From Bacteroidota bacterium (GTDB taxonomy: Bacteria; Bacteroidota; Bacteroidia; Chitinophagales; Chitinophagaceae): 32,989 nucleotides of DNA. The stretch is from the NCBI GenBank assembly GCA_031413675.1, contig JANOFP010000527.1:1-32989 (forward strand). The letters run 5' to 3'. Below are positions 916 to 8,127 of the stretch, one piece after another; the stretch's first letter is position 1, and the number at the start of each line of letters is the position of its first letter. A program made the position numbers and the translations under genes. The notes beneath the pieces are model-generated. The model did not search any database. It was given only the letters and a program-made list of their open reading frames with translations, and was not told the DNA's origin.

Positions 916-3834
916 ATGAAAAAAATACTGGCTACATTTTTATTTACCGTTATTATTATCACATCTGTTTTTTCTCAATACAAAAGCAACCTTACGGCCA
1001 GCGAATGGACGGATAGTGTTTTTAACTCATTAGATAATGATCAGAAAATTGCACAACTGATGGTGATTCGTGCACATTCCAATTTGGGTGCCGACCATAT
1101 TGCAAAAGTGATTAGCGAAATAAAAAAATACAATGTTGGTTCTTTATGCTTTTTCCAGGGTGGCCCGGTGCGCCAGGCAAATCTTACTAACTATTATCAA
1201 AGCATTGCAAAAACTCCGTTACTTATAACAATTGATGGCGAATGGGGATTGGGTATGCGGTTAGATAGTGTTACAAAATTTCCTTACCAACTTACGCTGG
1301 GTGCTATGAATAATGAAGCCCTGGTGTATGAAATGGGGATTGCAGTTGGCGAACAACATAAGCGGATGGGTGTGCATGTAAATTTTGCCCCGGTTGTAGA
1401 TATAAATAATAATCCCAATAATCCGGTTATCGGTTACCGGTCTTTTGGCGAAGACAAATATAAAGTGGCAAAGTTTGGTGTGGCATATATGAAAGGGATG
1501 CAGGATGCCGGTATAATGGCTTGCGCAAAACATTTTCCGGGTCATGGTGATGTAGATGTGGATTCGCATTTGGATTTGCCAGTAATAAATAAAACCCGTG
1601 AGCAGCTCGATTCAATGGAGTTGTATCCTTTCCGTGAACTATTTAATGCGGGTGTAGGCAGTGTTATGATTGCACATCTTTCTATTCCATCTATTGACAA
1701 TACCGAACATGTGGCAACCTCTATTTCAAAAAATAATGTTACCAATCTATTACGTGCTGATTTAAAATTTGCCGGACTTACTTTCACCGATGCACTGGAG
1801 ATGAAAGGAGTGGCTAAATATTTTCCCGGAGGCACAATTGCAGTAGAAGCAATCATTGCAGGTAACGATATGCTTTGCCTGCCAGAAGATGTAGGTATGG
1901 CAATATCAGAAATTAAAAAAGCAATCAACGAAAATAAATTAAGCTGGAATGCTATTTATGAGAAAGTAAAAAAAGTATTGCTTGCCAAATATCAGTTAGG
2001 TTTAAATAAAACTCAGCAAATCAGTTTAAACAATCTTGTTGAAGAATTAAATGCGAAAACAGATGCAATAAAAGCTAAAGTGGCAAAAGAAACCATTACC
2101 GTTCTTTCTCAAGGCGGCATGAGTGCTTCCAGAACTGATTATGCAGAAATTCCGTTGAAACAAAAAATGAAAATTGCTTATGTTGGAATCGGAACATCTC
2201 AGCTGAATGCATTTGGTAAAAGAATGAAAACGGATTTGAATGCTGATGTGTTTTTGTACTCCTGGAAAGATGGTGATGATAAAACTGAAGAAATATTTGA
2301 GGCCGTTGAAAAAAATAAATACGATGCAGTAGTAGTAGGTATTCATGATTTTAGTTTGCGTCCCGCAAATAATTATGGCATTACAAGAGCCTCATTTGCT
2401 TTGTGGCGCAAATTGAATTTCATAAAAACAATTACGGTAGTTTTTGGAAATGTACTGGCAGCCAATCAATATTGCGGAGCTTATACATTAGTAGCCGCTC
2501 ATCAGGATGATATTATTTTTCAGGAAACGGCTGCCGATTTAATTGAAGGAAAAATAGGTGCTTCAGGAAAATTACCGGTTCGTGTTTGTAAGTACCCAGC
2601 CGGATATGGAATTGATATTTCCGGGCCGGAAAAAAAAACTTCAATAATTAACAACCGCTATAATTTATTTTCGGTTGATTCTATTGCAAATGATGCTATC
2701 AGTCAAAAAGTCTTTCCCGGCTGTGTGGTTCTTGCTGTAAAAGATGGTGAAATTATTTTTCATAAGGCTTATGGGAACTTCATATACAATGCTGCAACTC
2801 CAGTAACACTCGAAAGCATTTATGATTTAGCATCGGTAACAAAAATTTCTGCCACTACTGTTTCAGTAATGAAACTATATGAACAAGGAAAGATAAATCT
2901 TAAGAAAACGCTTGGCGATTATTTGCCCTGGGTAAAAGGAACCGACAAAGAAAATTTGCATATAGATGATATCTTATTACACCAGGCAGGTCTTGTTCCT
3001 TTCATTCCTTTTTATAAAGAAACGATTGATACAACTACAGGCAATCCCAACCCCGCTATTTACTCGCCACTCGCCACTTCCTTTTTCAAAATTCCGGTGG
3101 CAAAAAATCTTTATTTAAGAAAAGATTGGAACGATACCATGTTCAGCCGCATTTTAAAAAGTCCGTTGGGTGTAAATGGAAGATACGTTTACAGTGATAA
3201 TGATTTTATTTTTCTAGGAAAAATTGTTGAACAGGTAAGCGGCATGCCATTGAATGAATATGTTCAAAAAAATTTTTATAGTAAAATAGCCATGCGAACA
3301 ACTGGCTTTAATCCAAGAAATCGTTTTTGGAATGAAGGGTTTCTTGTTCCTACTGAAAATGAAACTCATTTTCGCCAGCAACTGATACAGGGTTATGTAC
3401 ATGATGAAGGTGCAAGTATGTTTGGTGGTGTGGCTGGTCATGCAGGTTTATTTTCTTCTGCATACGATTTAGCAATGCTCTATCAGATGCTTTTAAATGG
3501 CGGTGAAATAAACGGAACGAAATATTTAAAACCCGAAACGATAAAATTATTTACTGCCTACCATGCAACTGGCACCAGCCGCCGCGGATATGGATTTGAT
3601 AAACCGGAAAAAGATAATGCAACAAGAAAAGATCCTTATCCTTCATCACTCGTTTCATCAGAAGCGTATGGACATACCGGTTTTACCGGCACATGTGTGT
3701 GGGTAGATCCGAAAGTAAATCTTGTCTATGTTTTTTTGAGCAACCGGGTATATCCAACAAGAAACAACCCCAAACTTTTACAAATGAATATCCGGGGAAA
3801 AATACAGGATGCGATTTATGCAGCTTTAAAATAA
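916..3834 (+). CDS. Glycoside hydrolase family 3 (NagZ-like) fused to a serine beta-lactamase/PBP-fold hydrolase, secreted
   Basis: There is a signal peptide. The N-terminal half carries the GH3 motif KHFPGHGDVDVDSHLDLP. The C-terminal ~380 aa carries SxxK (ASVTK), a YxN-like motif (YSDND) and an HxG motif (GHTGFTG). Confidence 0.9.
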   Translation: MKKILATFLFTVIIITSVFSQYKSNLTASEWTDSVFNSLDNDQKIAQLMVIRAHSNLGADHIAKVISEIKKYNVGSLCFFQGGPVRQANLTNYYQSIAKTPLLITIDGEWGLGMRLDSVTKFPYQLTLGAMNNEALVYEMGIAVGEQHKRMGVHVNFAPVVDINNNPNNPVIGYRSFGEDKYKVAKFGVAYMKGMQDAGIMACAKHFPGHGDVDVDSHLDLPVINKTREQLDSMELYPFRELFNAGVGSVMIAHLSIPSIDNTEHVATSISKNNVTNLLRADLKFAGLTFTDALEMKGVAKYFPGGTIAVEAIIAGNDMLCLPEDVGMAISEIKKAINENKLSWNAIYEKVKKVLLAKYQLGLNKTQQISLNNLVEELNAKTDAIKAKVAKETITVLSQGGMSASRTDYAEIPLKQKMKIAYVGIGTSQLNAFGKRMKTDLNADVFLYSWKDGDDKTEEIFEAVEKNKYDAVVVGIHDFSLRPANNYGITRASFALWRKLNFIKTITVVFGNVLAANQYCGAYTLVAAHQDDIIFQETAADLIEGKIGASGKLPVRVCKYPAGYGIDISGPEKKTSIINNRYNLFSVDSIANDAISQKVFPGCVVLAVKDGEIIFHKAYGNFIYNAATPVTLESIYDLASVTKISATTVSVMKLYEQGKINLKKTLGDYLPWVKGTDKENLHIDDILLHQAGLVPFIPFYKETIDTTTGNPNPAIYSPLATSFFKIPVAKNLYLRKDWNDTMFSRILKSPLGVNGRYVYSDNDFIFLGKIVEQVSGMPLNEYVQKNFYSKIAMRTTGFNPRNRFWNEGFLVPTENETHFRQQLIQGYVHDEGASMFGGVAGHAGLFSSAYDLAMLYQMLLNGGEINGTKYLKPETIKLFTAYHATGTSRRGYGFDKPEKDNATRKDPYPSSLVSSEAYGHTGFTGTCVWVDPKVNLVYVFLSNRVYPTRNNPKLLQMNIRGKIQDAIYAALK
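3061..3081 (+). repeat. Three tandem heptamers TACTCGC-CACTCGC-CACTTCC (21 nt) inside the GH3 fusion gene
   Basis: Seen directly. The 21 nt equal 7 codons (YSPLATS), and the unit is related to the CCACTCA units in holB and mutL. Confidence 0.5.
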
Positions 3835-3850
3835 AATAATTTATTTCCTC

Positions 3851-3920
3851 CCGGCGGTTGATTAGGATTTGGAGGTCGTTGATTTCTTTGATTGGGATTT
3901 TGTCGGTCTCTTTGTTGAAG
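3851..3920 (-). pseudogene. Orphan copy of the ricT (PSP1) 3' end
   Basis: 3871-3917 matches 5180-5226 at 42/47 bases without gaps. In the ricT frame it reads LQQRDRQNPNQRNQRPPNPNQPPGGN. It has no start codon and is out of frame with the adjacent ATPase stop. Confidence 0.6.
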
Positions 3921-3921
3921 T

Positions 3922-5049
3922 TTATTGCAACCACCTCATTAAAAATTTATCATAAACTGCATAGTAAGGTTCTGCAATGCCACCGTTGTAATACACCATT
4001 TCTTTTGCCAATAATGCCTCCAGGCCTCTCTTTACTAATGAAGAGTTTCCTAAATGGTTTTTACTTATAAATTCATTAGAATGGGGTTTTATTAATTTCT
4101 CTTCTTTTGCAATTGCTGTAAGCAATACCCATTGTGCATGTGTAAGCAGGTTCCTGTATTGGTAAAATATATCCTCTTTTTGTTTCAATAGTTCACTACT
4201 AACTTTAATCGTTTCTTCAATACCAATATTTTTTATGCCACTTGCAAAAATGCAATTACATAACTCTTGTACATAAAAGGTATGTGTATGGGTGAAATTT
4301 AATATATACTCAATAGCCTCAACGCTAATTTTTCGTTTATACGTTGAAAAATTATTTTTAATAAATTGCCCGTATTCTGTATTATTTATAAACCCAATTG
4401 ACAAGTTATTACAACTGGCATAGAATGGCCTTTTTGCACTGTTGAACATTTCCGTCATTATACGATGGTTGCTGCCACAAAAAATAAACCGGCAATTTTT
4501 TAACTGCTGCATATAAGTCCTCAACAATGCTTCTGTATTTTTTTCCGGGTAAGTGGTTATTTGCTGAAATTCATCAATAGCAATAACAACAGCGATGTTT
4601 TGCTTATCTAAAAAATTAAATAATTGCTGTATGGTTCTTTCAGATTCACGGTGCTGCCCCAAATCTAATGTTACCTCCGGGTTACCTGTCATTGCATCAT
4701 AACTTATTACCGGCCTCAATAGCTTAAGTACAGACAAAAATTTCTGCCCTATCCCTTTCTTCTCAGGAAACCGGTTATAGATTGCGGTAGCCAGGTTGTT
4801 TGTAAACTCCTTAAGGTTAACGGTAGAAAAAATATCTAAATAGATGCAAGCAATTTTTTTTGACCCTGATAGTTGATGAAATACATGGTGTACCAATCCC
4901 GTTTTACCCAATCTGCGTAATGCAAAAAGGGTAATGTTATTTTCATTTTTAATCAGCGAAAGTAAACGCCGGGTTTCTTCTTTTCTATCGCAAAAGTAAA
5001 CTGGACTGTGGTAGCCCGACGTAATAAATGGGTTGGCTGGGCGGTTCAT
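3922..5049 (-). CDS. ATP-binding protein, AAA/STAND-like (archaeal-ATPase PF01637 / DUF234-type architecture)
   Basis: It has a Walker A-like RRLGKTGL, a Walker B VVIAIDEFQQI, a sensor-like FCGSNH and a C-terminal winged-helix-like region. The family assignment is from memory, not searched. Confidence 0.85.
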   Translation of the reverse strand: MNRPANPFITSGYHSPVYFCDRKEETRRLLSLIKNENNITLFALRRLGKTGLVHHVFHQLSGSKKIACIYLDIFSTVNLKEFTNNLATAIYNRFPEKKGIGQKFLSVLKLLRPVISYDAMTGNPEVTLDLGQHRESERTIQQLFNFLDKQNIAVVIAIDEFQQITTYPEKNTEALLRTYMQQLKNCRFIFCGSNHRIMTEMFNSAKRPFYASCNNLSIGFINNTEYGQFIKNNFSTYKRKISVEAIEYILNFTHTHTFYVQELCNCIFASGIKNIGIEETIKVSSELLKQKEDIFYQYRNLLTHAQWVLLTAIAKEEKLIKPHSNEFISKNHLGNSSLVKRGLEALLAKEMVYYNGGIAEPYYAVYDKFLMRWLQ

Positions 5050-5069
5050 GCAGCCAAGTTATAAAAAAT

Positions 5070-5098
5070 TATACAAAATGTATAATACATTTTGTATA
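5070..5098. promoter_or_regulatory. Perfect 29-bp palindrome TATACAAAATGTA-TAA-TACATTTTGTATA between the ricT stop and the ATPase start
   Basis: 13-bp arms with a 3-nt spacer, seen directly. On the minus strand it is followed by ATTTTTTAT. It could be an AU-rich terminator for ricT, an operator for the ATPase gene, or both. Confidence 0.55.
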
Positions 5099-5109
5099 GA
5101 AATTATCTC

Positions 5110-6462
5110 TTACGCATTTCCCTCATTTGTATTGCCTGCCTGCCGGTCAGGCGGACCCGGACGTTGCTGGTTCGAATTCGGTGGTCGCTGATTTCTTTGA
5201 TTGGGGTTTTGCCTGTCTCTTTGTTGGTTGGGGTTTTGTCCGCCTCTTTGCTGATTCGGATTATTGCGTGGTGGTCCTTGTGGTCCCTGTGATCTTTGTC
5301 CACCGGATCCTGCGGATTGATTTCCCTGTTGTCTTTGCTGCTGACGTGGTTGCTGCTGTTGCTTTCGTTTACGGTCAGCTCTTTCTAATTGCTGCAAACT
5401 TATCTGTCCTACTACATCCACAAACTCGGGTTCTACTTCTTTGGGTTTAGTACTTGTTATTTCCACTGCTTCCAGTTCGTCGGGTATTACACCCTGTACA
5501 TTCAGCGTTTTTATTTTCTGCACCCGTTCAATCGTAAGTGGATAATGCTTGGTGCTGTCCGGCATAGTGTACCACATCAGGTTTTTAAAAATATCTTTTT
5601 TAATCAGAAAGGCATTGCCTTTTGTAATTTTCAATACATCGCAGTCTTCGGGGAAATGTTGCAATGCATCCAGATAAGTATCGAGTTCATAATTCAAACA
5701 ACATTTTAATCTTCCGCACTGTCCGCTAAGCTTTGTTTGATTGATTGATAAATTCTGATAACGGGCCGCTGTTGTATTTACACTTTTAAATTCGGTGAGC
5801 CATGTACTACAACACAATTCACGACCACAACTTCCGATGCCCCCGACTTTAGCACTCTCCTGCCTTGCTCCAATCTGACGCATTTCCACTTTTACTTTAA
5901 ACTCACCGGCATATACTTTTATCAATTCACGAAAATCCACACGGCCTTCGGCTATATAAAAAAAGGTTGCCTTACGTCCGTCGGCTTGCATCTCCACTTC
6001 ACTTATTTTCATGTTTAGTTTCAGCTGCTTTGCAATTGCACGGCTACGTATCACGGCTTCTTTCTCTCTTGCTTTATTACTGCGCCAGGTATCTACATCT
6101 CTGTCATTTGAGCGGCGAAGAATTTTTTTCATCTCTTTGTCATCTTCTTTTACACCATGCCTTTTCATTTGTAACCGAACAATCTCACCTGTCAAAGAAA
6201 TTTCACCCAAATCAAAACCACTTACACCTTCTACCGAAACCATATCGCCTTTTTCGTATTCATGCAATGTAGTATTTCTAAAAAAATCTTTGCGGCTACC
6301 GTTATTAAAACTTATCTCCACCACTTTACATTCATCACCAGCGTCGGCAACAGGAAGGTTGCGCAGCCAGTCATGCGTATTCATGCGGTTGCATCCGCCA
6401 GAACTACATCCGCCGTTGCTTTTACATCCACCTGGTTTTGTACCACAACTACCGCAAGCCAT
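5110..6462 (-). CDS. ricT: PSP1 domain protein (YaaT/RicT family) with a Cys-rich N-terminus and a Q/N/R/P-rich C-terminal tail
   Basis: The N-terminus is CGSCGTKPGGCKSNGGCSSGGC. PSP1-type Cys motifs CGRELCC and CGRLKCCLNYE are present. It lies downstream of holB, as in many bacteria. Confidence 0.9.
   Translation of the reverse strand: MACGSCGTKPGGCKSNGGCSSGGCNRMNTHDWLRNLPVADAGDECKVVEISFNNGSRKDFFRNTTLHEYEKGDMVSVEGVSGFDLGEISLTGEIVRLQMKRHGVKEDDKEMKKILRRSNDRDVDTWRSNKAREKEAVIRSRAIAKQLKLNMKISEVEMQADGRKATFFYIAEGRVDFRELIKVYAGEFKVKVEMRQIGARQESAKVGGIGSCGRELCCSTWLTEFKSVNTTAARYQNLSINQTKLSGQCGRLKCCLNYELDTYLDALQHFPEDCDVLKITKGNAFLIKKDIFKNLMWYTMPDSTKHYPLTIERVQKIKTLNVQGVIPDELEAVEITSTKPKEVEPEFVDVVGQISLQQLERADRKRKQQQQPRQQQRQQGNQSAGSGGQRSQGPQGPPRNNPNQQRGGQNPNQQRDRQNPNQRNQRPPNSNQQRPGPPDRQAGNTNEGNA
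5135..5155. repeat. 21-nt GC hairpin element, copy inside the ricT CDS (encodes PDRQAG)
   Basis: CCTGCCTG-CCGGT-CAGGCGGA matches the radA copy at 19/21 positions. Confidence 0.75.
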
Positions 6463-6548
6463 TCGTTATTTAATATTTATTAATTGAAAATTTTAAATTG
6501 AAAAGAACCCTGATATTTTTCAACCAGTTTTCGCTTACAATTTTTTTT

Positions 6549-6792
6549 GAGGGGGAGCCAGCGCAGTTACTACTATCATCGCCTGTTGTCTTCGAATCTT
6601 CCGGTGGAAGATTATCTCACTTGTTGCGTTCAGAAAAGGACTGAACAATTTTGAGACTCTTGTATTTTGCTGAATAGACTTGATTCAGTACAAGAGTGCG
6701 ACGCAACGGAAGCTTAATATATAGACGAACGATGACTCAATAATTACAACCTGAACTATGTGGAAACACCATCTAGTGCAGGCCTCCAACTC
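6549..6792. ncRNA. Candidate structured RNA or non-coding element of unknown class between holB and ricT
   Basis: The block is ~45% GC (hand count) inside an otherwise AT-rich spacer and contains no ORF. A closing helix pairs 6549-6559 with 6781-6792. Nested hairpins lie at 6595-6613, 6628-6646, 6656-6697 and 6756-6776. No known RNA family was recognised. Confidence 0.3.
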
Positions 6793-6801
6793 ACATCTCA
6801 C

Positions 6802-6825
6802 AACCTGTCTGCCGACAGGCAGGTT
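6802..6825. repeat. GC hairpin element, intergenic copy 16 nt downstream of the holB stop, flanked by CAACTCA/CATCTCA and CCACTCA heptamers
   Basis: AACCTGTCTG-CCGA-CAGGCAGGTT forms 10 bp, with one T:G position. Confidence 0.7.
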
Positions 6826-6840
6826 CACCACTCACATCCC

Positions 6841-8070
6841 TCAATCTGCCAAAAGTACTATTTTGTTTTTAATGATATGATATAGTTTAATGGTAAGGGC
6901 ATGGAAGAGCATTTTGGCGTTGGCATTGCGTTCTATATAATAAACCGCCCTGTCAAGCTCCTCTACTATAGCCTGTTGCTGGCTGATGTCGGCTATTTTA
7001 TTAATTCGGTTTGCAAAATCATTTTCAGAGCTGTCAGTGGCTTCAATACCTATGGGGCTGGTGATGCGCAAATGAATACTTTGTTCTAACAGGTGATTAA
7101 AATAGCGGAGAAACTGTTTTTGTTTTTCCCTGCCAAGCCTGCTTATCTCTTCCACCCATTTAGTTTGAGCAGCTGGCCCCGTTTTTAAAATTGCATTCAG
7201 CCAGTCCCGTAATAAACTTTGCCAATCTTCATCGGCATGTTGTAATTGCTGTAAAGCATCCCGGTAATTTCCATCGCTTGTTGCCGCTACCTGCCTTGCT
7301 TTATTCGCATCGGTATTGTTTCTGTTTATCAGTGCATCTGCTATATCCTTTGTTTCAAGCAATGGAATTTTCACCAATTGACATCTCGATACGATTGTTG
7401 GTAGAATTAAGGATTCATTTTCTGCAACCAAGATAAATAAAGTATTGGGTGGCGGCTCTTCAATAATCTTCAACAATTTGTTTCCTTCTTTTTCCAGGTA
7501 CTCGGGCATCCAGAGAATTAATATTTTATAGGGGCTTTCAAAACTTTTCAGACTTAGTTTCTTAATAATGTCATTGCATTCAAGTGCCGTTATATTTCCT
7601 TGCTTGTTTTCTGCTCCTATAAACTGAAGCCAGTCATATATATTTCCATAAGGGTAGCCTTTTATAAATTCTCGCCACTCGGTTATATAATCTGTACTGA
7701 TAGGTGGTTTGCCCGATTTGTTTGTTACAACAGGATAGGAAAAATGAATATCAGGATGAACGAGTTCATTTGCTTTTTTACAACCGGAGCAAATGCCGCA
7801 GGAATCTGAAGGTGAGTGGTGAGTGGTGAGTGATGAGTGTGAAGGCTCATCTCCAAACAAAGAAGGTTCTGAGTGCTGATTGCCGACTGCTGACTGTTTG
7901 TCGCCAGTTTTTTCGCAAACAACATACTGGGCAAATGCAAGAGCAAGCTGTAATGCACCACTTCCTTCTTTACCTAAAAACAATAATGCATGAGCCAGCC
8001 TGTTTGTTTGCATCATATCAGCTAATTGATGCTTTACGTTTTGTTGTGCTATGATAGAAGAAAATTGCAT
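6841..8070 (-). CDS. holB: DNA polymerase III subunit delta' (clamp-loader AAA+), carrying a 28-aa repeat-derived insert
   Basis: The N-terminus has AHALLFLGKEGSG. A zinc-module CGICSGC is followed by HPDIHF, and the SRC motif TIVSRCQ is present. The gene is adjacent to ricT. Confidence 0.85.
   Translation of the reverse strand: MQFSSIIAQQNVKHQLADMMQTNRLAHALLFLGKEGSGALQLALAFAQYVVCEKTGDKQSAVGNQHSEPSLFGDEPSHSSLTTHHSPSDSCGICSGCKKANELVHPDIHFSYPVVTNKSGKPPISTDYITEWREFIKGYPYGNIYDWLQFIGAENKQGNITALECNDIIKKLSLKSFESPYKILILWMPEYLEKEGNKLLKIIEEPPPNTLFILVAENESLILPTIVSRCQLVKIPLLETKDIADALINRNNTDANKARQVAATSDGNYRDALQQLQHADEDWQSLLRDWLNAILKTGPAAQTKWVEEISRLGREKQKQFLRYFNHLLEQSIHLRITSPIGIEATDSSENDFANRINKIADISQQQAIVEELDRAVYYIERNANAKMLFHALTIKLYHIIKNKIVLLAD
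7813..7896 (-). repeat. Two-part heptamer-array module in frame in holB (4 x CAGTCAG-type, a 28-nt spacer, 4 x CCACTCA-type)
   Basis: On the plus strand the units are TGAGTGG x2, TGAGTGA and TGAGTGT (7813-7840), and CTGAGTG, CTGATTG, CCGACTG and CTGACTG (7869-7896). The 84 nt equal 12 x 7 and correspond to codons 59-86 exactly. Confidence 0.8.
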
Positions 8071-8094
8071 GAACTGCGAATATAAATCTTCTTA

Positions 8095-8127
8095 CAAATA
8101 AAAAAGCGTTGAAAAAATTTCAACGCT
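8095..8127 (-). terminator. Intrinsic terminator after the glutathione peroxidase gene
   Basis: A 10-bp stem AGCGTTGAAA/TTTCAACGCT is followed on the minus strand by TTTTTTATTTG. Confidence 0.75.

Follow-up and report, generated by a model that had tools for sequence, protein, structure and literature searches.

The ricT locus

The DNA analysed here, called the window, is a stretch of 32,989 nt on contig JANOFP010000527.1 from a Bacteroidota bacterium of the Chitinophagaceae. It carries the housekeeping gene ricT and, convergent to it, a gene for a fusion of a GH3 domain with a beta-lactamase fold. Between the two lies a gene for an AAA+ ATPase with a C-terminal winged helix, preceded by a perfect palindrome. 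Between the ATPase stop and the GH3 stop there is a short piece of DNA which reads like the 3' end of ricT, here termed the orphan. The ATPase gene is an insertion at the ricT end which supplied ricT with a replacement end and left the original end stranded downstream, as had been proposed in an initial annotation of this DNA. The two copies of the ricT end have diverged as coding sequence. The ricT product passes the NCBIfam model NF041131 with 241.5 bits (cut-off 70). In most of 80 related loci the gene order is holB-ricT-GH3, i.e., the GH3 fusion gene is the conserved right-hand neighbour of ricT. Related loci are numbered with L, related RicT proteins with P. Coordinates in the window are collected in Table 1.

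Table 1. Positions of the ATPase gene, the two ricT ends and the adjoining features in the window
Feature	Position	Strand	Remarks
ATPase gene, 375-aa AAA+ protein	3922..5049	-	C-terminal winged helix; PF01637; Orc1/Cdc6-like fold; inserted accessory gene; allele clade A
Orphan, stranded original ricT 3' end	3837..3920	-	reads LQQRDRQNPNQRNQRPPNPNQPPGGNK in the ricT frame; 2 nt from the GH3 stop
Direct repeat, downstream copy	3859..3917	-	50/59 identical to 5168-5226; ungapped 47-nt core 42/47
Direct repeat, upstream copy	5168..5226	-	in frame inside functional ricT
Replacement ricT end	5110..5167	-	SNQQRPGPPDRQAGNTNEGNA, then stop; absent from the closest ricT relatives; a small GC hairpin lies at ~5134-5154
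Perfect 29-bp palindrome	5070..5098	.	14+1+14 nt; two dyad boxes, TATACAAAATGTAT and ATACATTTTGTATA
Probable Bacteroidota -7 promoter box of the ATPase gene	5054..5061	-	TAACTTGG; read from the sequence
Allele-swap block	3997..5109	-	~65% identical to L001 (pairwise nucleotide alignment)
ricT (RicT/YaaT, PSP1 domain)	5110..6462	-	NCBIfam NF041131, Pfam PF04468
GH3 and beta-lactamase-fold fusion gene	916..3834	+	Pfam PF00933 and PF00144; convergent with ricT
holB	6841-8070	-	

The duplicated ricT end

The ricT tail is a fast-evolving region of low complexity, rich in Q, N, R, P and G, with 27-nt repeat units at 5197-5250. Across the family these tails vary greatly; the core of ricT is 65-95% conserved. 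The initial annotation had noticed a direct repeat between tail and orphan (3871-3917 against 5180-5226, 42 of 47 positions identical, no gaps) and had cautioned that part of the similarity might be due to low complexity. The repeat is real and extends to 59 nt. When the orphan is slid along the entire ricT tail, 50 of 59 positions agree in a single register and at most 32 of 59 in all others, and in the rest of the window no site on either strand reaches 36 of 59. Further, the repeat scores 36.5, the best of 30 shuffles 10.5. Thus, low complexity does not explain the repeat.

Seventeen codons are common to both copies. They differ by six bases in five codons and every change is synonymous (AGG/CGA, AAC/AAT, CAG/CAA, CCA/CCT, CCG/CCA). 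In 100,000 simulations the probability that six random substitutions leave the peptide unchanged was about 6e-5. The same bias is found independently in two other lineages, in which the copies differ almost solely by silent changes (L088, P ~1e-4; L178, P ~3e-4). The view that the copies evolved as coding sequence in different lineages is borne out.

The orphan itself has the properties which had been ascribed to it: there is no start codon, its frame is +1 relative to the ATPase stop at 3922-3924, and it reads across the convergent GH3 stop at 3832-3834. Its former stop codon, at 3837-3839, is TTA in the window and TAA at the same spot in L001, the related locus with the same architecture. 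Translation of the orphan from the ATPase gene by frameshift or readthrough was considered and rejected; the frame relation differs between lineages. The interval between the two copies contains the ricT stop, the palindrome and the ATPase gene, as annotated; it does not consist of these alone, for it includes another 58 nt of ricT coding sequence, the replacement end.

The GC-rich hairpin CCTGACCGGCAGGCAGG of the replacement end occurs with variants elsewhere, in L180 (~6710-6730), in L057 (~3975-3995) and in the gaps of L063 and L017. In coding ricT tails it is read as PDRQAG; it also occurs in intergenic gaps between ricT and GH3. It resembles a tiny repetitive extragenic palindrome (REP)-like or terminator element which is able to sit in frame in a low-complexity tail.

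Sites without the ATPase gene

A genome scan with ricT comprised 80 Chitinophagaceae loci, and only two of these (L001, L057) possess the ATPase gene. In 16 related loci nothing separates ricT from the convergent GH3 gene, and the distance between their stops lies between -22 and +15 nt. The empty site with a single ricT end, which had been suggested as a check of the insertion, thus exists, and it exists also in a close relative: in L182, the contig of P0123 with a ricT 94% identical to that of the window, the convergent gene follows 30 nt after ricT and there is no ATPase gene.

The C-termini tell which of the two ends is the original one. A protein search shows that the six closest ricT proteins (P0122, P0123, P0125, P0126, P0127 and P0131; 88-94% identical) end with ...QQRGRQNPNQRNQRPPNPNQPPGENK and stop, which is the reading of the orphan; the orphan-type C-terminus at this level of identity is also rendered as ...NQRNQRPPNPNQPPGENK and ...QNPNQRNQRPPNPNQPPGENK, each followed by the stop. 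None of the six ends like the present ricT of the window. The spacing between orphan and GH3 in the window matches that of ATPase-free sites, and in L001 the orphan ends with TAA 3 nt from the GH3 stop. The C-termini of the close relatives and the native spacing to GH3 identify the orphan as the native ricT end in its original place.

Close ricT relatives have a single QNPNQRNQRPPN unit, followed by the orphan-type end; hence no internal repeat existed which an insertion might have split. The window tail (5197-5250; 5211-5237) has one 27-nt unit and an 18-nt segment which are absent from L001. The single unit of the close relatives bears on a purely local origin of the repeat, either as a transposase-like target-site duplication which decays in place or as a tail repeat divided by the insert. 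The tail is indeed internally repetitive, and the repeat directly brackets the insert. Yet the splitting of an older repeat is contradicted by the single unit of the close relatives, and neutral decay would not yield six silent changes out of six. A duplication of at least 59 nt also far exceeds known target duplications of transposons. A transposon or insertion sequence was rejected as well: there is neither a transposase nor are there terminal inverted repeats at the ends of the insert, and the 59-nt repeat carries silent changes only. Altogether a local event is highly improbable.

Alleles and junctions in related loci

The flanks of the window and L001 are about 95% identical (84-87% at third codon positions). 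On the ricT side the identity is at least 95% up to the ricT stop, and it returns to this level about 75 nt before the ATPase stop. The block in between, which begins just after the ricT stop and includes the palindrome, drops to the value given in Table 1, and the ATPase proteins are 68% identical. Such a pattern is that of an allele replacement by homologous recombination. The orphans of both loci, outside this block, have diverged about as much as third codon positions, and the orphan of L001 has acquired an in-frame TGA and a 3-nt indel. This indicates that the orphan has been neutral and non-coding since the window and L001 separated.

The ATPases of the ricT-linked loci fall into allele clade A (window, L081, L085), clade B (L001, L057, L088) and a third allele, C (L180). 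The three alleles are 66-71% identical to each other and reside in hosts whose ricT genes are at least 92% identical. The alleles cut across the kinship of the hosts: the window and L001 have A and B, respectively, and so have the sister hosts L086 and L088. In a neighbour-joining tree the ricT-linked ATPases form one clade, and their hosts are scattered among ATPase-free lineages.

Six of nine ricT-linked lineages (window, L001, L081, L085, L088, L178) have a direct repeat: a part of the local ricT tail recurs behind the ATPase gene, 1-20 nt past its stop. The length of the repeat, 17-59 nt, and its starting point differ among the six. In the other three (L057, L176, L180) there is no repeat. 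In the locus L180 (likewise L181), with a ricT 92% identical to that of the window, the third allele lies at 6788-8104 between ricT and GH3 without a duplicated ricT end: a native-type ricT end is followed by a 183-nt spacer with boxes, and the ATPase stop is 5 nt away from the GH3 stop. After the ATPase stop L180 and L001 have AATT in common and then diverge, which places the junction about 4 nt beyond the ATPase stop. In L057 no orphan is detectable downstream of the ATPase gene; where other loci have orphan and GH3, an IS630-like transposase gene, judged from its translation only, follows directly (5380-6225). Finally, L019 has no ATPase gene and retains at 3583-3718 the boxes TATACAAAATGTGTTATACATTTTGTATA, a remnant of the promoter and 'ATGTGTTGGTTACAGTAA', in which the start codon is fused to the last codons (WLQ and stop). 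This remnant is a deletion scar of the ATPase gene.

One might explain these loci by a single ancient insertion in an ancestor common to many Chitinophagaceae. Descent would then have been vertical, with repeated precise loss by way of the repeats, and the copies would have been homogenised by gene conversion or by recombination with alleles of the population which lack the ATPase. The monophyly of the ricT-linked ATPases and the remnant in L019, a lineage now without the gene, agree with this, and so does the ending ...AATAAATAA which is common to the orphans of L085, L088, the window and L001. The distribution of the alleles does not: clades A and B conflict with host relationships, and the close relative L180 has a different junction and no repeat. 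Further, if the orphan were non-coding and of the same age as the ATPase clade, changes other than silent ones would be expected between it and its counterpart. Vertical descent from one old insertion appears rather unlikely.

Route of entry

The reading which we prefer, at a probability of about 0.6, is that the ATPase module entered the gap between ricT and GH3 by homology-anchored recombination with ricT as the anchor, rather than by means of a dedicated integrase. The module, consisting of dyad-box operator, promoter and open reading frame (ORF), would be self-contained and horizontally exchanged. The incoming DNA would have originated from a related bacterium which already possessed the arrangement ricT 3' end, boxes, ATPase. 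On one side it would have recombined within ricT. On the other side it would have been joined illegitimately, from about 4 nt after the ATPase stop into the tail of the recipient ricT about 80 nt ahead of its stop. A circularised fragment and a single crossover in the tail would lead to the same product. The donor end would have become the working end of ricT, with the recipient end stranded beside GH3. Later on, ordinary homologous recombination would have exchanged alleles, as it did between the window and L001, and the module would have been deleted in some lineages, e.g., L019.

Several features would find their explanation here. The silent-only divergence would arise because the two copies are donor and recipient alleles. 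The fidelity to the ricT site in spite of a missing integrase would follow because the homologous anchor travels together with the gene. Variable junctions are accommodated as well. One-sided anchored recombination and integration of a circle by a single crossover are both documented experimentally (PMC3240628), and homology-anchored displacement was proposed for orphaned 3' ends at type VI secretion system (T6SS) and Rhs loci (PMC5361080).

The initial annotation had envisaged a recombinase-driven cassette which targets gene 3' ends and had stated that the window is devoid of a recombinase. The latter is correct. Neither a recombinase nor a transposase is encoded by any of the 24 large ORFs of the window, and no integrase or transposase is found beside the module in the called genes of about ten related loci, the IS630-like gene downstream in L057 being called unrelated. 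In its complete form the proposal assumes an attachment site in the ricT 3' end, a recombinase encoded elsewhere, and repeats which represent attL and attR. The repeats in two thirds of the ricT-linked lineages, with orphans close behind the ATPase stop, fit such a cassette, as does an analogous duplication of a cas1 5' end in L090 (see below). Boxes on both sides of the gene in L093, L094, L113, L141 and L159/L169 are reminiscent of recombination sites. Against this, no recombinase is seen in the window or in any related locus, repeat length and junction vary by lineage, the copies have no identical core, and L057, L176 and L180 carry the gene at the same site without a repeat. The ricT-linked genes are one clade and not the outcome of repeated targeting from diverse sources. 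It had also been expected that ATPase paralogs elsewhere are flanked by duplications. In 66 distant relatives with usable flanks there is no duplicated piece of a neighbouring gene, and some have boxes on both sides. Taking both sides into account a site-specific cassette is unlikely and is not supported as the vehicle.

Some points speak against homology-anchored entry also. The trees are neighbour-joining trees only. At the junction about 4 nt after the ATPase stop the sequence is ACTT or AATT, then CAACAA, and no clear microhomology can be assigned. A donor with the exact replacement tail of the window was not identified, and with the present data a one-sided anchor and a circle with a single crossover cannot be told apart. 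The start of the orphan 1-20 nt behind the ATPase stop in six of nine lineages is more regular than rare illegitimate events predict. This regularity could stem from a single early event whose products were kept alike through recombination with ATPase-free alleles, or from a site-specific process. Because the anchor model does not fully explain it, a site-specific process retains some probability.

Palindrome, dyad boxes and promoter

The perfect palindrome reported in the initial annotation is present. Its two dyad boxes lie beside TAACTTGG, which probably is the -7 promoter box of the ATPase gene. A TTTG inside the proximal dyad box, about 20 nt upstream of the -7 box, takes the -33 position, and TAnnTTTG-like boxes occur at the same place in relatives.

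This arrangement is general. In every context examined, whether ricT-linked, cas-linked or among 80 metagenomic relatives (37-55% identical), two to three tandem dyad boxes of about 15 nt are positioned 20-70 nt upstream of the ATPase start, next to a -7 box of the Bacteroidota type. An adjacent 12-mer repeat was detected in 66 of 85 non-redundant ATPase upstream regions compared with 26 of 425 control windows. Further, the sequence of the boxes co-varies with the protein: allele A has TATACAAAATGTATA, allele B has (T/C)ACACAAAATGTGT, and more distant members of the family have TTGCGCATTTTGCGCAA, TTACGAAC...TTCGTAA or GTTAACAACCTTTAGTTAA. The palindrome is a family-wide cis element of the ATPase gene. 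It probably is the operator of this gene. By analogy with Orc1, which binds dyad origin recognition box (ORB) elements, the tandem dyad boxes over the -33 region of the gene are the most likely target of the winged helix, by which the ATPase would autoregulate its expression. As RNA the palindrome is predicted to form a hairpin of -16.7 kcal/mol (z = -4.3) ahead of a U-run and could, according to this prediction, also terminate transcription of ricT.

In several relatives there is a second pair of dyad boxes at or just after the ATPase stop. In L093 the two sets are at 4940-4988 and 6132-6180 (44/49 identical), in L094 at 4944-4972 and 6132-6160 (28/29), and in L113, L141 and L159/L169 the downstream pair is 100% identical. 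Some of the palindromes which bracket the gene are flanked by A-runs and T-runs, like a bidirectional terminator. In the distant relative L097 a direct repeat of 166 nt (~30-200 versus ~1405-1570, 141/166 identical) brackets the ATPase gene and a second set of boxes is located downstream; the repeat possibly stems from a tandem paralogue or another insertion event. A dif/Xer site was rejected as an identity for the palindrome, which has no recognisable XerC/D arms. An integron cassette was rejected as well, for the palindrome is found 5' to the gene, next to a promoter-like box, and there is no integrase.

The ATPase family

The initial annotation had classified the ATPase as PF01637/DUF234-type. 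The first half of this label stands: the protein passes Pfam PF01637 with 45 bits (cut-off 33.2, E = 1.5e-11, residues 19-253). The second half does not; PF03008 (DUF234) gives no match at E <= 0.01, and the C-terminal 120 residues are without a Pfam match. Walker A and Walker B regions are conserved, with R45, R46, G48, K49 and T50 and with D159, E160, F161 and Q162 invariant in an alignment of 20 sequences.

In an AlphaFold model of the ATPase (predicted local distance difference test, pLDDT, 78.6) AAA+ base and lid are accompanied by a winged helix at the C-terminus. Foldseek matches this model best to 2QEN (E = 2e-11) and 2FNA (E = 8e-11), followed by Orc1/Cdc6 proteins aligned over the full length. 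A profile search of PDB sequences returned 2FNA at 5e-6. The NCBIfam equivalog model for ORC1 is failed clearly (17.6 bits, cut-off 311); thus, the likeness to Orc1/Cdc6 is one of fold only.

At E <= 1e-10 the family comprises 3,856 proteins, nearly all 375-378 aa long. It is rare in viral contigs and plasmids. By tblastn, plasmid and phage collections contain only relatives of at most 40% identity, annotated as 'ATP-binding protein' or unannotated, and IMG/VR viral contigs contain 17 distant matches and no close one. In the literature under DUF234, PF01637, COG1672 and Arch_ATPase nothing was found on this ATPase family. None of the PADLOC defence models matches the ATPase at E <= 0.1, and a role in conflict or defence is only a guess.

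ATPases in cas loci

In four separate lineages, L090 (1060-7758), L092, L094 and L175, type II CRISPR loci contain an ATPase gene in the space from cas9 to cas1; these ATPases, 55-65% identical, are the closest outgroups of the ricT-linked clade. Each has dyad boxes of its own, and the ATPase gene is usually placed only 8-60 nt upstream of the cas1 start. The window contains no cas genes, and a placement between cas9 and cas1 was not encountered in the ricT-linked clade or in 80 distant relatives. In L090 a copy of the cas1 5' end of 45 nt lies upstream of the boxes, with the real cas1 start downstream (4962-5006 versus 6466-6510, 38/45 identical). The stranded copy thus mirrors the ricT orphan at another host gene. 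We found no description of an ATPase between cas9 and cas1 in the literature. The placement may reflect a functional link or just a landing place which is shared by accessory genes.

ORFs between cas9 and the ATPase gene in L094 (4290-4916, full length) and L092 (4636-4884, a fragment) resemble transposases of the IS200/RayT type (Y1), as judged from motifs only. Bacteroidota repeats reach 48 nt (PMC3737331). A target duplication by Cas1-Cas2 was dropped as an explanation, that length being its sole basis.

The remainder of the window

Beyond the four genes discussed so far the 20 other large ORFs of the window encode housekeeping functions, among them EamA, glutathione peroxidase, RadA, SusC/D, RNase G, HU, MutY, SSB, GldD and MutL. 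Within the ATPase gene, at 4001-4600, the G+C content drops to 0.30-0.31 compared with 0.36-0.42 in the core genes on either side, which would suit a gene of foreign or accessory origin. Scans of the window for tRNA, tmRNA and Rfam families returned zero matches; no RNA gene is thus available as an attachment site. A motif search of the window yielded no additional copy. A scan for consensus promoters and terminators was uninformative, the sigma-70 consensus being unsuited to Bacteroidota.

Significance

The locus is a well-resolved example of a known route of gene gain and not a new kind of mobile element. Its value lies in the fact that one set of loci has preserved the stages side by side: ATPase-free sites, a filled site with a stranded end, a filled site without duplication, an allele swap and a deletion remnant. 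It further illustrates that the 3' end of a housekeeping gene can be replaced by the copy of a relative when foreign DNA is anchored in it, a pattern known chiefly from toxin loci.

Further study should turn to the module of ATPase and boxes and to its placement in cas loci. The analysis offers a first handle on a large uncharacterised ATPase family of Bacteroidota with more than 3,800 proteins, i.e., a proposed fold, a candidate operator whose sequence changes along with the protein, and a placement between cas9 and cas1 which recurs. A bolder view would regard ATPase and boxes as an unrecognised self-propagating or defence-linked single-gene module of Bacteroidota which homes to the ricT 3' end and to the cas9-cas1 gap of type II-C loci. 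The boxes would then double as recombination or end sites, a reading which derives from their presence on both sides of the gene in several relatives. We regard this as a long shot. If true, the module may in cas loci be accessory to adaptation or interference.

Comparison with known systems

Integron cassettes and pdif (Xer) modules resemble the ATPase module as single genes with a palindromic site, and in some relatives two copies of the palindrome flank the gene. In contrast, the palindrome of the window is a single copy 5' of the gene at its own promoter, IntI/attI is absent, and a site of the XerC/D type was not recognised. Islands and phages which are inserted by integrases at gene 3' ends likewise duplicate the target end, provide a replacement for it, keep the gene functional and strand the native end. 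Of the hallmarks of integrative elements the window has bracketing repeats and relatives with an unoccupied site; it differs by an insert of merely 1.3 kb, by the missing recombinase, and by the lack of a constant core or junction, the junctions varying by lineage.

With respect to the protein, the archaeal PF01637 ATPases 2FNA and 2QEN and the Orc1/Cdc6 proteins on dyad ORB elements (2QBY, 2V1U) share the AAA+ base, lid and C-terminal winged helix. As in the Orc1/Cdc6-ORB systems, dyad-symmetric DNA boxes adjoin the ATPase gene of the window. However, sequence identities are 12-16%, and the protein of the window is the product of a bacterial accessory gene in varied contexts; an origin function is not implied.

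By a Campbell-type, RecA-dependent single crossover of a circle (PMC3240628) an insert arises with direct repeats of the homologous segment on both sides and without a dedicated integrase, each repeat copy being a hybrid of donor and recipient. In the window the homology is just 60-115 nt, approximately, and no circle has been observed.

A close parallel is homology-facilitated illegitimate recombination, for which Jackson 2009, de Vries & Wackernagel 2002 and Prudhomme 2002 are reportedly the sources. At Rhs, contact-dependent inhibition (CDI) and T6SS effector loci the displacement of C-termini with orphaned 3' ends was attributed to this process (PMC5361080). There, the displaced ends belong to polymorphic toxins; in the window the displaced end belongs to the housekeeping gene ricT, and its new and old versions code for almost identical peptides. 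A single AAA+ gene without toxin-immunity logic is the cargo of the window, and there is one orphan instead of an array. The following is common to both situations. Incoming DNA is anchored in a conserved upstream gene and brings along a new 3' end together with a downstream gene, the old 3' end is orphaned just downstream, and alleles are later swapped by homologous recombination. Two signs of C-terminal displacement, a native end retained directly downstream and divergence of the coding type, are found in the window.

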